Source: Hydrolagus colliei (taxonomy: Eukaryota). From it: a stretch of DNA of 64,000 nucleotides. Positions 40,809-61,895 of this stretch are shown here, piece by piece; position 1 is the first letter of the stretch; each line of letters opens with the position of its first letter. The notes beneath the pieces were generated by a model. That model did not search any database, had not been told where the DNA came from, and saw only the letters and a program-made list of their open reading frames with translations. The DNA lies in assembly GCA_035084275.1 (NCBI GenBank), contig CM068745.1, forward strand, positions 70,184,001 to 70,248,000, read 5' to 3'. Made by a program: the position numbers and the translations under genes.

Positions 40809-43800
40809 TTAAGAACATTTAGGATCATGTGGCAATATGCTAAGACACTTATGTGTGACAATGTGCTGCTAAATGGACATCTGCTACAGCTGCTCACATC
40901 TCAGTGCTCAATGAAGAAAGTGGTGCCACAGCTGCATTTACTAAACCAACAATTCAAGAGTATTTATTTACTGACTGGTAATTAGATCAGCAGAAGTAAG
41001 AGGGTCAATTTTGTTTTGCTCACTTAAATTTCCATTGCTTCACATGATTTATATAAACATATGCTATTATTAAGGTAGTAAAGTAAGATGTCTCCTGATC
41101 TGGACTTAGTAGGATGCTCTAAAGCATTAGAAATTGTCTGCTTTAATTATTCACAGGTTTGAGATATACTCTAACATCTAAGTACCATTAATAATAATAA
41201 TCCTTGAATTTGAAATAGATAGACATCACATTTTTGATACGTCTCAAAGGGTTTTTCTTGGAATATATGCAGTACTGTAAAGTGAATTCATTGTATTAAA
41301 GTTGCCTTTAATTCATAAAATCAAAACCTGGATATTTTGTTGAGATATATTTTTTTGCCGGAAAGAAGGAAATCAAGATGAAAAATTTATCCCCAAAACA
41401 CCTCAAATACATTTGGTGAAAATTCTGATTTGTTTTGGGCTACTCACTTAACTCTCGCATCTCAAAACCAGCCTCACTACAATGTCAGTTCCAGTTTCTA
41501 TTTAATCATTGGATAGAAATTAAAGAGAGAGCCATGATTGCAAACATAAATAGCATTCAACAAAACCTTGTTGAATGCATCAAATTTCATTTTAGCTTTA
41601 GAAAAATTCCTGTTTTATTTATAACCAATTTCTTTGACAGCTTTTTACCTGGGTGTTCCTGGAAATAAAATAACTCATTTTGGTAAACTATTAATTATTA
41701 AATGCTACATTTAATAAACTGTTGCAGCTTTCTATTAGTTCTGCTCTTTGCTGCAGAAATGACGTAAAAAGACCTCTCCTAGATCAAGTGATGCATTGCC
41801 ACCAGTTAAGTCAGTTACTGTGTTTGCAATTACTATGAGTAATTGGATGTCATTCCACATATTATACTATTTAATTGATCAACATAACATCACATTCATA
41901 GCAAAGGCAGATATTATGATAGATACATTGAAGGCTCAATATAAATGCAAGTTGTTATTGATAAACATGTAGCATATTGTTAATAATAATAAGCCTTGCA
42001 TTTGATATAGTGCCTATCACATCTTCAAGATGTCTCAAAGTGCTTCACAGAATATACTGTAAAGTGTAGTGACTGCATATTATGTATGAAACGCAGCAGC
42101 CAATTACACACAGCAGTGTCCCACAAATAGTCATGTTGTTTTGTATTGTTCACATTATAAAACAAAATTGTACCTTCATTACTTCACAGCATTTTTGCGC
42201 ACTGAGCAGAAGTGCGCAAAAATAGAGCAGAAATTCTAAGCGTAGCAATGAAACTGCTAATCTGCAAAAGGTATGTCATTTAGTGAGTATATATGGATAT
42301 AGGAGGTAAATATAGACAAAATTATTTTGAACTGTTTTAGAATTTTTTGATGGTTGTGGTACTAATTCCAAATCAATCATCTCCTCATTTAACAAAAGGC
42401 AAAATACTGCAGATAAAAAAGAAGTCACTGGGAGCACAGCAGGTCAGGCAGCATCGCCTCATTTAATTTGATTGAGCTAGTTGAGCATTTGTTCACCTAT
42501 CAAATTGCATGATTTGGAGTACAACACAATCAGAGACTAACTGGGAATGACAGACTCCAGTGCACATAATCCTTTTGGAGATTCTGAGTGGAGGTTTTCC
42601 TAGTGGCAACAGATACTGATTTTAAGGCACATCCAAGCAGTTATTTGGAGAAGAGCATGGATTAGACACCCATTCTCGTCATTTAAAATACTCCTACAGG
42701 CCCACAAGATCCCTGGTTTAGCCATCTAGTAAAGACCCTGAAGCATGATAGCCCTAATCCTAATTCTTCTTTCTCTTGGAGCATTAGTCTTTATGTCGGC
42801 TAGAGGACACCACCTGATACAACAACAAAACAACAAAATTACATTTGTAGAGCGCCTTTCATGTTGGTGTTTTCTCCTGATGAGGAGATATCAAATGGAT
42901 GTGGAGGAAGAGTTGCTAGTCCTGTCCCTTCACTTGCTCATCAATGTGGAATATGCTGGAAAGAAATCATAGTTTCCACATTGCCATAAAATGGTTAAAT
43001 GTAGTTGCGAAGGAAATGTTAGGGTATTAACTTTGTGGGCATTTTGCCCACAAAATATATAGTCAATTAATTTATAGTATGTTTTGCGAAGCGCTTTAAG
43101 ACGTCTCACAGACAAGTTAAGGCAGTATATCAAAGGATTATTACTATCAACAGATGGAACAAGGGTGACTATTTATTTGTGACTATTTGGATGTCACCCA
43201 GTTCATCCTTCCAGTGCTCCTCAGATAATTATATTTATATTCCTCACCCTCTGGAATTCCATCCTGGAATCATTCCCTTTGCCTCTTTTAAGGCCTGTCT
43301 CAAGACCTATCTCTTTGACCATGGCTTCTAGGACACACTTCTGTCATTTCCCCTCCCTTTCCATGAAGCCATGGTGCCATTAAACACTCTAGGACGCTAC
43401 CCAGGCAAAGGGCGCTATATAAATGCAAGTTGTTGTTGGTGGTGGCATTTTTAGTTAACCTTGACATGCAATCAAGCATTTTTATCTAAAAATTGCAGGT
43501 GACTGCTGACTTGTCAATACAATGTGAATTGTATTTATTAAAAGAGCTTCTGAAATGATCTATTTGAATGAAGTTCCTCTTCTTTTTCAATGTCCTCCCT
43601 ACCAGGCACTATGCCATTCTGAGGCAGTATGAAAGCTACTCTGAAACCACCAACTAGATATGTGAAACAAGAATGTGTTAACGTATCCTACCATGTTCTG
43701 TATCTAAGTGTTGGAAGATTGGGAATTCCATTCATTGGGAATTTTAATTGAAAACCTGTAGTTTTCTTCCTGCCCCCTCCTCAGTGAAACAAGTTTATTA

Positions 43801-50103: not shown

Positions 50104-51296
50104 CTCTGCACCTGAGCTGGTTGGGATCAGAAGGGGTATAGGGCAGTGAGGGTAGGGATAGGAGGTTAACTGAAGGCATGGTCTAAGAAGAGGGTTTTGA
50201 GACAGATCGTGAAGGAAGCAAGGGAGCGAGTGAGATGGAGGGACTGTGGAATGGAGTTCAGTGAGTGAAAGATTTGGAGAGGAGGAAAGGAAGCTGAGGA
50301 TTCGTAAATATTATGCATTTGAAATGAGTTACCCTACAAGCAAACCATTAGCAGTTTCAAATTTGTTTTTGATCTACAACAACAACTTCGATTTACATAG
50401 TGCCCTCCACGCCAGACGGCGTCTCAGAGCGCTTCAAATAAGTGAAGCATATACTGTATTATATGTTACCTCGTGCAATCCAACAGAGCTGCCTGCTCAC
50501 TTTCCTAAAACAATAATAAATTGGTCATTTCAATCCTTGACTGTTTGTGGGACCCTGCTGTGCACAAGTAGCTGCTGCATTTCTCCCACAAAATACATTC
50601 AATTCACTTTTCAGCATATTCTGTGAAGCGCTTTGAGACGTCTAGAAGACGTGAAAAGCGCTATATCAAATACAAGTATTGTTATTATTAATATTATCGT
50701 ATTAAGGTTGGATTATTCTGTAGCTTAAGATGCTCATTTCACATGAAAAAATGGGCATGTTCTCATTGAGTGAGCTGTTATGAGATTTGTTGTTTTCCTA
50801 TGTTTTCTAGGCTTCCAAGCTTAAGAGTAGGCAGTTTTACAAGGTTAATGAAGTGTAGACTGTCTCTCCTAAATTGAATACGTACATACATTGTTGTTGT
50901 TCCAGTTTTAAAAAAAACAATGGGACGGAGAACACAACAGCAGTGTTCTGAGACTATAATGTTCTGTTCAGTTGTTTATCCTGAATTGTAATCTTAAGCT
51001 ACTAATGCTAAACAGAAAGCTTTATTCTACTCCATGTACGATTAGCAATGATAAAATCAGATTAGTGAGATGACTGAAGTTTACCTCAATTGTATATTTC
51101 ACCATCAGTAATGCTAACATCATGATTACTACTGTTAATTACTTTCAAATTTCAATCAATAGTTTTTTCTGATAAGTTGTGAAGTTTTACTTAGAAATGC
51201 AAGTGAAATTCCTGTAAAATATAAGAATGATGTAGAATTGCTGCTTTTTTTGGTATACGATTACTCCTACAAAATCTTTTTATTTCTTCTTTCAAG

Positions 51297-51957
51297 TTAC
51301 ACTCCTCTGTGACCAGAATCCAAATTCCGATGATGGGCTTCAATTACTCCTTTGCCCATATGTGCATTTTAAAGGACGATAAGATGTGCGCATTGGATGA
51401 CATTGTTCAAGTGCTGGAAGAGCTGAGAGCGGCTCGTGCTGTGAATCGCACTGGGATTATCATCAACTACCCAAATACCTATCTTAGAGATGGCCAGGAG
51501 GTGTTTATAGGGCATCAACTTGGAGGAGTTATGTTACAGAGCAAAGATCGGGTTAAATCTGCCAGAGCTGTGCAGATTACCTACTATCTTCAAACTCGCA
51601 ATTCTTTAAGTGATTTGGTGGCAGAGAAATGGGAATCCGTCTTCTGTGAGACTGTGGAAAACTTCCAGAAATCCAACAAAGAGCTAAAGCTCTATCCATT
51701 CACATCATCGTCTTTGAGGGAGGATTTCCAGAAGACCAGTCAAGTGTCAGAATGGTATCTGATAACCAGCCTGGTGGTGGTGTTGGTTTTGGCTGTGCTG
51801 TGCTGCTCCATGCAAGACTGTGTCCGTAGCAAGCCCTGGCTCGGGCTCCTGGGTCTGGTGACCATGGGCCTCGCGACCCTCACCTCTGCAGGGATAATCA
51901 ACTTGATGGGAGGGAAATACAACTCTACCTTCCTAGGAATTCCCTACATTGTCTTAG
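51297..51957 (+). CDS. PTCHD1: PTCHD1 exon 2 (661 nt; first luminal loop and start of the sterol-sensing domain)
   Basis: Pyrimidine tract plus ttcaag| acceptor; phase 0 matches exon 1. Reads [11 protein letters not shown]...FNYSFAHMC...GHQLGGV...[12 protein letters not shown]...[21 protein letters not shown]...[16 protein letters not shown](G). Phase-1 donor TTAG|GTAATT at 51957/51958. Confidence 0.95.
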
Positions 51958-52811
51958 GTAATTATGCATCTGTAACTGGCATCCATATTTGAGTTTTGGC
52001 AACTTTCTAACATAGAGACATCCTCACGGAACTAAGACCACTCAATTGACCCTTTAAGGACTGACAAATGCATAACCTCTCAAAAGCAAGCTTGGTTTAT
52101 CTCAAATGTGTCTTCTAAAATAATCTTCTGCAAAAATTGATACAGACCACATAGATTGCAATTCCTGAGAACAATAGAAATATAGAATTTGATCTTGAAT
52201 GACTGGGAACTAAAATTTAAATGTGGTCCCATTTCCTAAAATCCTGTGGTAAAGAGAATGACTGATGTTTCCTTAAATTTCCTTATTTCAAAGTCTTGGT
52301 ACAGATTTCAGATAGCATGTTATTGTGTGTTTGATTCATGGTTGATGAACACATAGGAATTTATGGCACAGAAGAAGGCCATTCAACCTTGTGTCTGTGC
52401 TGGACATTTGAAAGAGTCATTCATTTATTATTCAGTCCCATTTATTTGCCTTTTTCCCATACTTCAATGAATCATGAATCAAGCAGAATTGTGTGCCTTA
52501 GATGTGAAAAGTTCTCATGGTTGGCTTTGACCATGGACCTTGGGTGTAGCTGCAGTCCTGAACGGGTTAAACATGTTAAACAGGTCATAATGTGATTTAC
52601 TTGTGAGGATCCATTATTTCCCATCAACGCTGAAATTAATTTTCGGTCATACAGATAGAAATTGTTTCTGATCTTGCAGGCTTCTTTCTTTCAGTCTTTT
52701 CTCACCATTCCTAAAGCTCAGTTTACATTTTTATAACAAATGTGAAACATTTACATTTTTCACAACCACAAAATTTACAACCGCTGTCTTTGAATGTAGA
52801 AACAATAAATA

Positions 52812-59177: not shown

Positions 59178-59632
59178 ACATTCCAATGCAGCACTGGAGG
59201 TGTGCTACATTGCCAAAGGTGGCGTCCTTTGAATGAGATGTTAAACCGAGGTCCCTTCTGCCAATTCAGATGAACATTAAAGATCCCATGGAACTATTTG
59301 AAAAGAGAAGGGAGTTTCTCCCATTTCCTGGCCAACAAGTGGAGTCCTGTAGTTCAGTGGTTAGAATGCAAACCAAGCTGTTGAGTAAGGCTGTAGAGTA
59401 AGGAAACTTGCCCAAGGTTTCACCCTGCCGGAATTGAACCCAGGTGTCTTGCTTGCGAGGCGAGTGCTCTGAGCTACAGGACTTCATGGCTGTTTGTGGA
59501 ACATTGCTGAATGCAACTGGCTGAATGCAACAAAATACTCAAGTCAATGTGCTTTACAATCCGGTGGAATGCTTTTTATACATTGCTACGATGTGAAAAG
59601 CCATTATATCGAATGCAAGGAATATTATTAGT
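59178..59632 (+). mobile_element. DeuSINE-like element carrying two oppositely oriented family-A SINE heads (59341-59485)
   Basis: Deu-like 59178-59340; GGAGTCCTGTAGTTCAG...CTGAGCTACAGGACTTC insert; the tail resumes at 59486. Confidence 0.75.
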
Positions 59633-59892
59633 GCTTTTATTTAATTTATTATTAGTAGCTGTATTATTACAGGAGACCACAAATTCATTTGAACAACAGC
59701 TTGGAGAAGGATGGGGATTCTGGAACGATCAAACAGGTTAAAAGGCCTTCTTCATCTAAAGCTTTCTTGTGATCTTGAATTTCTGCTTAATGAGGCTGCT
59801 TTGTTTGTTCACAAAAGTGAACTTTCAAGCACTGTTTTGCAGGATATTGATTTACTTAAGTCATTATCATGTAAATCAACATTGAAATGCTC

Positions 59893-60131
59893 AAAACACA
59901 AAATACTACAAGGCTGGAAATCTGAAACAAAAACAGAAGTTGCTGAGAAAACTCAGCAGGTCAGGCAGCATCCATGGAGAAAGGAAAGTGAGTCAACGTT
60001 TTGGGTCCATGGCCATTCGTTAGTACTCGCTTCTGATGAAGGGTCGTGGACCTGAAACGTTGACTCACTTTCCTTTCTCCATGGATGCTGCCTGACCTGC
60101 TGAGTTTTCCCAGCAACTTCTGTTTTTATTT
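59893..60131. mobile_element. Palindromic Penelope-like (PLE) terminal-repeat-derived element
   Basis: Arms 59925-60024 and 60032-60131 are reverse complements, nearly perfect over the outer ~77 bp. The arm sequence (...GAAACGTTGACTC...GATGCTGCCTGACCTGCTGAG...) resembles recalled shark PLE ends. A degraded fragment lies at about 42395-42457. Confidence 0.7.
60028..60066 (+). ncRNA. Minimal type-I hammerhead ribozyme motif (PLE type); activity unknown
   Basis: CUGAUGA(A) at 60033-60040; stem II GGGUC-gug-GACCU at 60041-60053; GAAA at 60054-60057; palindromic AACGUU in place of stem III; stem I is weak in this arm. Confidence 0.55.
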
Positions 60132-61469
60132 GTGATTGAAATCCTCTAACCTGAGAAGGAAAATGATCACCAGAAATCAAGCAAGCTCTGGGTCATTTGA
60201 CATATTTGTAATTTGGGCTTGCAATCTTTGCATCCGTTATCTTTCACTTTGTTTTTAGCCAACAGGTAACTTGCACAGAATCCTGGCCCTGATATGAGTT
60301 AGCTCGGTCTTCCATGGATCCATCTAGCAAGACTAAAAATAAAAGGAGGAAACTAGCAGTTGGAACCTTCAAAATTAACAACCATGAACTGTAAAGGTGG
60401 CTGTTTTTATAATGGTCATTTCCATCTTGGATTTGATTCTTTCAATGCTGCTTTACATGGTGATGATGAGTTAAACAAAATCATGTTGTGTAAAGTAGCA
60501 CCTGAATGTCCACTCAGAATTAAACACACATGATCTGCTATACCAGCAGTTTTGGGTCCTTTATTTAGGCAGAGGTGTTACTGGGGAAGTTACTTGAAAA
60601 CACATTTTAGTTTCTTTCTTAAATTTAGGATCAGAATGCGCTTTGGTTTACTACAATTTTGACCCCACAATCCCATTGTCAAGCACTCCAGGATTCTACC
60701 CTGTATGAAGTCCGCTATATAAATGCAAGTACTGTAGTTATTGTTGTTCAGAAGGGGAACGGTAATCAGAAAGATCAGATTGAATTACTCTAGATCCCCC
60801 TGGGAAGCAGTGGAAATGGATAGTGTCAACAAATTTCAATGTATAGGTATGAAGATACATGATAGTGGGAGAGATCGGGGGGTAGTTTTCAATGGCCTTG
60901 TAGAAAATCGAACGTGTCATAATCATAATGTTTTATGATTTAAGTGCAATTCCTTGTTCCTATTTTCAATAAATACTGTCAACTAATTACCAGTAAGTCA
61001 ATTCATACTGTCAGAAGTCCCCAGCCACTCAACGCATTCAGTCACAAGAGGACCAGTTACTTAATGCTTATTGTCACCAGAATATTAAGGATTCAGTGCA
61101 TATAGTCACCAGACTATCAGGAAATCAATGAATACAGTCATTTGACTCTGAGAACACTGAATCAATTCTGTCACCAGATTCCTAGGGACTCAAACGATAC
61201 TGCCACTAAACTACTAGATACTCCAGAAGACCTCAGGAACAAAAGCTTATTTGTGGGCTGGGAAGGGTGTGATTTTGCTCTTCTTCACCAGATTGTGGAG
61301 AGGAAATAAATATGAAACCATTTGATTTTTTAATTAAAACTGTTCCAGAGGTTACAATTTAAAATAAATGAATTGTCACTTAAAATTCAAGTTGACATCA
61401 ATCCTAAAATGAAAGAAACACAGACGAGAGAAACCAGTCCCTGGTAGTTTGCTGGTAGAGCGAGCCATT

Positions 61470-61895
61470 CCTGCATTTAATATAGCACCATTTCACATCA
61501 TCAAGACATCTGAAAGAAAGTTCTGTGAAGTACAGTGTCTGTGTATTTGAAGGCAAACATGGCAACCAATTTACACACAGCAATGCACCAAACCCATGAA
61601 TGGGTGACCATTTTTAAAATCTGATTGATTGTTGCCTTATAGAGTGGAAGAAACTCCCCTCTCTTTTCAAGTTCAGTACTGTACTGTAATGCCTTGGAAT
61701 CTTTCATGTACACCCAAACAGACAGACTGGACCTTGGTTTAACATCTCATTAAAGCAAAACACAATGCAGTACACCAGCATATCTCCAGGACCACATTGA
61801 CATGTAAGCCTAGATTATAAAATCATTGTCTTGACATAGGGCTTGAACCCAGTACCTTCTGACTCAGAGATGAGAGTATTATCAATGTATCCAGA
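61470..61895 (-). mobile_element. DeuSINE-like SINE, near full length
   Basis: Reverse complement reads ACTCTCATCTCTGAGTCAGAAGGTACTGGGTTCAAGCCC...ATAATCTAGGCT...GAGATGTTAAACCAAGGTCC...tail. Confidence 0.78.

Follow-up and report, generated by a model that had tools for sequence, protein, structure and literature searches.

Inserts of Penelope-like elements (PLEs) typically combine an inverted terminal repeat (pLTR), a tail on one side only, a TSD and solo pLTRs (PMC3846280, PMC8557442, PMC2377424), and in one of these accounts the inversion of the pLTR is explained by self-priming (PMC3846280). Hammerhead motifs have been described on opposite strands of PLEs, 100-700 bp apart (PMC4209133), and cleavage of PLE hammerheads as dimers has been reported (PMC5785218, as cited in PMC6765202). 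For the Poseidon element of Anolis (PAc), the PLE protein is described as cutting and extending both strands in vitro, with the RT using uncleaved RNA and starting at two internal sites, which delimit the tail (PMC11167929). The origin of the inverted repeats and tails of PLEs is regarded as an open question in the field (PMC8557442, PMC11167929). A literature search judged by title and start of abstract, covering few subscription journals and with Repbase and Dfam outside its scope, returned nothing relevant on twin priming in PLEs or on such inserts in cartilaginous fish.

The insert described here lies in a window of 64,000 nucleotides, the whole stretch of Hydrolagus colliei DNA that was analysed, and all coordinates are positions in that window. 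It is very probably a head-to-head pair of pLTRs from a decayed, endonuclease-bearing PLE, likely placed by one insertion event and now predicted to be inert.

The insert, its host intron and its parent element

Two inverted arms (59919-60023 and 60033-60137), each of 105 nt and 90% complementary, fold as RNA at -181 kcal/mol (z = -20; equally stable shuffles 0/200), bearing out an original prediction of inverted arms of about 100 bp. The extent of 59925-60131 given in that prediction was too small and overlooked both a tail and the TSD. By comparison with other family copies, the full insert spans 59893-60134 (242 bases), is flanked by a 12-bp TSD with 1 mismatch between its copies, and has a tail of about 30 nt confined to the left arm. 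The features are as follows, with family positions numbered relative to the C of CUGA and the predicted cut between +28 and +29.

51231-51989, plus strand: open frame containing the host exon that precedes the insert (Patched SSD domain), with a GT donor after about 51957
59881-59892: left TSD, 12 bp, 1 mismatch to the right copy
59893-59921, minus strand: tail of the PLE, spanning about +102 to +133 and confined to the left arm, by family comparison
59893-60028, minus strand: left arm, a pLTR copy from -4 to +133 plus a G at -5, by family alignment
59995-60023, minus strand: left-arm hammerhead, broken at G5 (now A), G12 (now A) and G10.1 (now U) and by one more stem II change
60029-60030: filler of 2 bases at the head-to-head junction, which differs in every copy
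60031-60131, plus strand: right arm, a pLTR copy from -2 to about +98 without the tail, by family alignment
60033-60061, plus strand: right-arm minimal type I hammerhead core, by motif, with the cut predicted after 60061
60135-60146: right TSD, 12 bp, 1 mismatch to the left copy

Compared with the family reference, the left arm has 8 differences in 136 aligned positions and the right arm 5 in 107. The G at -5 of the left arm is absent from the parent, which has C there in 37 of 38 copies. This pLTR family has another, short copy in the window, at 42394-42465 on the minus strand, where the tail and about 45 nt are present, internally deleted, within a TSD of about 10 bp judged by eye.

The host, a Patched-domain gene, lies on the plus strand, and its next exon lies about 7.5 kb beyond the window end (L031:7546). 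GT and AG at its exon borders locate the insert between coding exons 2 and 3, on the sense strand of that intron, in agreement with the intron 2 position claimed earlier; PTCHD1, the name given with that claim, is a putative identification from the protein sequence. The left arm also supplies the host sense strand with a donor-like AAA/GTGAGT (59985-59993), which would be buried in the hairpin. Another repeat, present as two inverted copies at 59229-59323 and 61645-61754, brackets the palindrome about 2.3 kb apart (68 nt at 76% and 26 nt at 92%) and could give the intron a second duplex. Contigs of sequencing run X3 span both insert junctions, and X3 may be the source sample; the contigs of runs X1 and X2, which may be RNA, leave the unique flanks uncovered, a result that carries no information on expression.

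On sequence comparison, the insert is the terminal repeat of a decayed PLE encoding RT and a GIY-YIG domain, longer copies of which occur in the same genome. The same arm sequence serves as both the 3′ and the 5′ repeat of RT + GIY-YIG copies, which supports the derivation from a PLE terminus put forward in the original prediction. Upstream of some arms comes a pyrimidine-rich stretch and, beyond it, DNA coding for the endonuclease, and the repeat lies about 270 nt after the stop codon in 22 of 25 endonuclease-matching loci. Parent translations contain RT motifs, a C-x4-CxxC linker (present in L189, L191 and L192) and a GIY-YIG-type domain, and are interrupted by numerous stops and frameshifts. 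PF01541 matches coincide with at least 10 of the 40 endonuclease-DNA matches, tblastn of the parent to an intact RT + GIY-YIG ORF gave E values down to 3e-21, and a Pfam search of one 232-aa parent fragment returned no match. Three near-full-length copies, about 3.1 kb long, consist of a direct 5′ pLTR with tail, the ORF and a 3′ pLTR, with TSDs of 13-14 bp judged by eye; elsewhere in the family, parent copies carry pLTRs in direct and inverted orientation and as partial tandems. All parent copies seen are broken, and because they are 85-92% alike and full of stops the family looks inactive. A Cx2-5CxxC linker between RT and EN is given as defining the Neptune clade and is also reported in Nematis (PMC8557442), and the linker read from the parent translations points to one of these two clades.

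Intact GIY-YIG elements near contig ends were considered as the parent and rejected, the arm having no blastn match to them. A second, unrelated PLE family (L095-L122) combines an intact 783-aa frame for RT + GIY-YIG with a second frame upstream of it, up to 566 aa long, that gives a weak GDSL lipase hint (E 0.19). Its tandem units of 5.5-6.6 kb are interspersed with TTAGGG repeats and lie no more than about 100 kb from the ends of many contigs, in plus orientation at contig starts and minus at contig ends of known length, so that the 5′ end faces the terminus (examples at G000:C21:18683000-18703000, C38:36000-56000, C2:137370001-137380000 and C20:14001-24000). This arrangement suggests an endonuclease-bearing, telomere-associated PLE in a vertebrate that is probably active. 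A hammerhead-like motif in the second family has U3-A8 replacing C3-G8 (L115, minus strand, 2111; L120, plus strand, 1592), a core covariation reported for Schistosoma PLEs (PMC4209133).

The hammerhead motif and the decay of the hairpin

The right-arm motif, CUGAUGA-A-GGGUC-gug-GACCU-GAAA-CG-UU at 60033-60061, has the letters originally reported and keeps all 11 catalytic positions. The accompanying description of this core as intact holds for these positions but not for stem II (60041-60045/60049-60053), whose closing pair is G-U, the conserved G10.1-C11.1 pair having decayed to a wobble. Stem I comprises just 60031-60032/60062-60063 (2 bp); it had been described as damaged, but was instead cut short at insertion. 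The left core, for which a minus-strand reading with core mutations had been proposed, has the letters claimed and lacks G5 and G12, the latter described as the general base of the hammerhead (PMC6155905). When the whole insert is folded, stem II has a probability of 0.0 and forcing the ribozyme core open costs 32 kcal/mol; even the isolated right-arm motif forms stem II with a probability of only about 0.3. Cleavage at 60061 is therefore predicted to be unlikely, because the hairpin would bury stem II, stem I has 2 bp and the pair at 10.1-11.1 is G-U. The folding model thus agrees with the suggestion that the hairpin sequesters the ribozyme, and the motif of this insert is predicted to be trapped and inactive.

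The parent motif was read from 38 copies, those spanning it among 49 picked by coding DNA. The majority letters leave all 11 core positions intact, and 21 of the 38 copies are individually fully intact. Stem I of the parent is 4 bp, AGUU/GACU, paired in 33-38 of 38 copies at each position, with a fifth pair in 0/38, and it differs from the intact stem I GAGTT/AACTC that had been suggested. A longer parent stem I, of 6 bp and beginning with TTTGAG (32 matches), was also rejected, since copies with real upstream DNA show CCCCAG and the TTTG belongs to the filler at the junction. Stem II is 5 bp, paired in 32-36 of the 38. Changes that keep pairs are one-sided: in stem I, U-G became C-G in 6 copies and U-A in 4, while stem II varies between C-G and U-G, with 2 U-A. 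No recurrent two-sided change was seen among the 38 copies, whose majority letters retain the CUGANGA/GAAA core. Motif and family copies support the minimal hammerhead with a palindromic stem III that was originally recognised. Non-CpG divergence, with subfamily differences counted in, is 2.4% in the hammerhead core versus 4.7% and 9.1% in its flanks, a pattern that fits selection during the active time of the element. A search of the Rfam hammerhead families, which had been proposed as a check, gave no match at E up to 10, either here or in the parent-like copies L136, L153 and L175, and the sole Rfam matches at the insert were miRNA-type hairpins below the gathering score. The ribozyme call rests, for this reason, on the motif and on the published description of minimal hammerheads.

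The mismatches between the arms were said to cluster in the inner ribozyme region, and they do, with 7 in 60002-60023 and 2 in the outer 77 bp (59925-60001). All four arm CpGs lie within the inner 32 nt, 4 of the 7 inner mismatches are at CpG, and the cluster is CpG decay, with no support for a meaning beyond it. Across 21 palindromes (23 distinct loci of 29 fetched, minus two segmental duplicates), differences from the reference amount to 69/330 at CpG, 30/987 at other inner sites and 120/2871 at outer sites, the last figure being inflated by one subfamily letter. Outside CpG, arm-to-arm mismatch is 29/483 in the inner part versus 72/1422 in the outer (p = 0.41). Divergence between the arms of one palindrome (5.3%) is close to that between palindromes (5.4%, p = 0.28). 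Neither gene conversion between arms, looked for in the 21 palindromes, nor compensatory retention of arm pairing across the family was seen, and the arms have likely decayed neutrally since insertion.

These figures also bear on adoption of the hairpin or ribozyme by the host, as an editing substrate, as a source of small RNAs or for intron cleavage by dimers formed in trans with transcripts of other copies. The insert does lie on the sense strand of an intron, where it would form a duplex of about 105 bp, its right core keeps the 11 catalytic positions, and the genome holds hundreds of potential partner cores. However, both arms have drifted from the family reference (8/136 and 5/107) as other copies have, and the family retains no compensatory pairing. 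The left core without G5 and G12, the right core with its 2-bp stem I and wobble at 10.1-11.1, and the low probability (about 0.3) of stem II in the isolated motif likewise argue against a function, making host adoption extremely improbable. Incidental A-to-I editing of the hairpin, as distinct from a function, is plausible.

Palindrome geometry and the route of insertion

A genome search with the palindrome gave 3762 first-look candidates, and the 40 places that were scored, not counting the copy in the window, were all full palindromes at 83-92% identity. The exact 27-nt core occurs 404 times, and its reversed control 0 times. Eighty-nine arms were examined (the first 91 listed of the 404, minus a second arm and one duplicate, L002), a sample that favours young or intact copies, being defined by the exact core on two contigs. 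An inverted partner was present in 40 of the 89 arms and absent from 49, with tail-less partners under about 17 nt escaping detection. TSDs of 9-17 bp flank 36 of the 66 copies with mappable ends (23 of the 89 were dropped) versus 24 of 654 shuffled pairs. Copies L038, L056, L061, L165, L166, L195 and L201 occupy one and the same position in another abundant repeat, adjoining CACTTTACAG, which hints at a preferred target. Contigs X1/X2, from a second organism, also carry the pLTR family, mostly with other subfamily letters; C at 59950 accounts for about 90% of summed depth in X1/X2 versus 41% in X3, depth not being copy number, and the letters hint that the subfamily of the window copy spread in one lineage.

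The original prediction took the insert for a non-autonomous hairpin derivative, and many of the family's palindromes are indeed full ones, similar in size and at 87-92% identity, with arms that agree in subfamily letters, as would be expected if a ready-made palindrome spread from one or a few master copies in the manner of a MITE or retrozyme. A search for a common internal junction and uniform length among copies failed: the centres (52-76 nt) differ in 21 of 21 palindromes, and arm lengths vary. Spread as a hairpin is further contradicted by the 49 of 89 arms that are unpaired, by partner ends so varied that their lengths form a continuum, and by TSDs of 9-17 bp like those of target-primed insertion, and a 105-bp hairpin would be a poor template. 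A master-copy hairpin is accordingly very unlikely.

The tail, about 33 nt in the family, follows a one-arm rule. In 37 of 40 pairs a single arm carries it, against both arms in 0 and neither in 3 (Fisher p = 8e-8; the tail of L077 is doubtful, and L165 and L168 have upstream DNA in common), and in the second set it is on one arm in 21 of 21 palindromes. On their 3′ side, arms stop at about +95 to +105 or at +125 to +134, which is true both of partners and of single arms. The starts of partner arms are spread from -65 to +103, with 8 of 40 beginning at +85 to +103 and holding little beyond the tail; in 3 of the 40 pairs the two arms have no sequence in common.

Such ends also allow copying by self-priming or cDNA fold-back after a single target priming to be weighed. 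This route has been proposed in print for rotifer Penelope elements (PMC3846280), and it would suit the short reiterated or palindromic pieces seen in some centres and the agreement of subfamily letters between arms (90/105 sites in 39 pairs versus 49% in shuffled pairs), which by sequence fits equally one RNA or one source gene at a time. Against it, fold-back copying cannot give the 3 pairs without any common sequence, which need two primings on the RNA, nor the 8 partners that are nearly tail only, and the tail-less arm ends where tail-less single copies end. We consider fold-back unlikely, though less so than the master-copy hairpin.

At the other end, the 5′ ends of the 89 arms are concentrated at -6 to 0 (58 arms), with 2 at -11 to -7, 21 further upstream and 8 downstream. 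An ORF-bearing set, comprising 21 copies with a direct 5′ pLTR among 30 fetched, has 6 starts at -2 to -7 and 11 downstream of the cleavage site, with L266 starting exactly at it; L266 and the 11 downstream starts may possibly reflect some cleaved templates. An accumulation of 5′ ends at +29, the cleavage site, was looked for and rejected (0/40 partners, 1/21 ORF-bearing copies). Among internally joined copies, 9 of 15 rejoin near the same 5′ boundary, without GT donors. The upstream tract resembles that of a 3′ splice site, a reading of the boundary that is not favoured, as GT stands at the parent breakpoint in 0/15 joined copies; no GT..AG joints were found among the joints listed for these copies. 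Short partial tandems (L238, L239, L243, L244, L245, L253 and L261) have a 5′ pLTR, 130-1000 nt of ORF start and a pLTR restarting at about -4, often across A/T-rich filler ending in G, and look like template jumps from the RNA 5′ end.

Where the parent C at -5 is absent, the letter in its place is G in 56, A in 28 and T in 16 of the first 100 listed of 419 cases, an excess of G (p = 4e-11 versus 25%, hand count). Of 15 G cases read in context, about 6 allow microhomology with target or partner and 2 are a clean single untemplated G. In L1, an untemplated G is taken to indicate that the cap has been copied (PMC9341517); here the excess could also stem from a master copy that begins with G or from an RT that prefers to add C.

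The simplest model for this geometry would be priming from two nicks, near the 5′ end of a capped and uncleaved transcript. We infer it from the one-tail rule, the two 3′ end sites, the non-overlapping arms and the in vitro PLE results, within limits set by the exact-core filter, by the difficulty of detecting tail-less partners when they are very short, and by the in vitro reaction, which shows no strand preference. In LINE-1 twin priming, the element RNA is primed from both nicked strands of the target, which yields an inverted 5′ piece. In the PLE, the element RNA would start at the 5′ boundary, at an initiator-like CCAGTTC, be capped, and be copied uncleaved. The endonuclease would nick both target strands about 12 bp apart, and each nick would prime RT at one of two internal start sites near the RNA 5′ end, a position that would limit the cDNAs to only 100-140 nt each. 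The two cDNA ends would then be joined via microhomology or filler, so that the palindrome would be a by-product made afresh with every insertion. Within the host pre-mRNA, the duplex of about 105 bp would bury a ribozyme already short of half its stem I.

A fuller joint reading, on which we are evenly balanced, would take the family as an in vivo record of PLE insertion. RNA would start at the first base of stem I, and one capped, uncleaved molecule would be primed from both nicks at two fixed sites; the tail-side cDNA would either halt on reaching the second primer, leaving an inverted tail only, or displace that primer, giving a full palindrome, and the RT would jump from the capped end into the same RNA to produce partial tandems. 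If this is true, one mechanism covers the tail, the inverted pLTR, the solo pLTR and the partial tandem, and the hammerhead is dispensable for insertion. The by-products would seed the genome with hundreds of long hairpins directed against the element's own RNA, which, speculatively, could feed silencing.

Comparison with known systems

The locus is an ordinary, likely inert copy of a known insert type, one of hundreds of decayed inserts offering at most incidental intronic dsRNA, like inverted Alu pairs, and it is the geometry of the family that gives a testable lead on mechanism. The one-tail rule, the non-overlapping arms, the sharp 5′ end and the extra G are countable predictions for the two-nick model. 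As in LINE-1 twin priming, both nicked strands would prime on the element RNA; in LINE-1, however, there is no overlap between the pieces and the second site varies, whereas here the sites are fixed and the arms mostly overlap almost fully.

Among PLEs, the insert resembles those described for endonuclease-bearing elements with a 30-40-nt tail, such as Pen2a_Av (PMC3846280; PMC8557442), in its head-to-head pLTR, one-arm tail and TSD, and the family also has in common with them heavy 5′ truncation, partial tandems, and an initiator-like motif and hammerhead in the pLTR. It differs from Pen2a_Av-type inserts in consisting of two bare pLTRs (about 240 nt), in numbering hundreds of copies, and in that both arms often end at a sharp boundary, the start of stem I. 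The motif matches the metazoan PLE minimal type I hammerheads described in PMC4209133 in its CUGANGA and GAAA boxes, an extra base before stem II, a palindromic CG at 15.2-16.2, a 4-bp stem I in the parent and the lack of helix III, and departs from them in a stem II of 5 bp and, in the window copy, a stem I of 2 bp and a G10.1-C11.1 pair changed to G-U. Finally, two RT start sites bounding the tail, an uncleaved template and cutting of both target strands would be features common to this family and PAc as characterised in PMC11167929; unlike PAc, the parent of this family encodes a C-x4-CxxC linker, and its probable start codon, an ATG, follows the tail and is not in the hammerhead.
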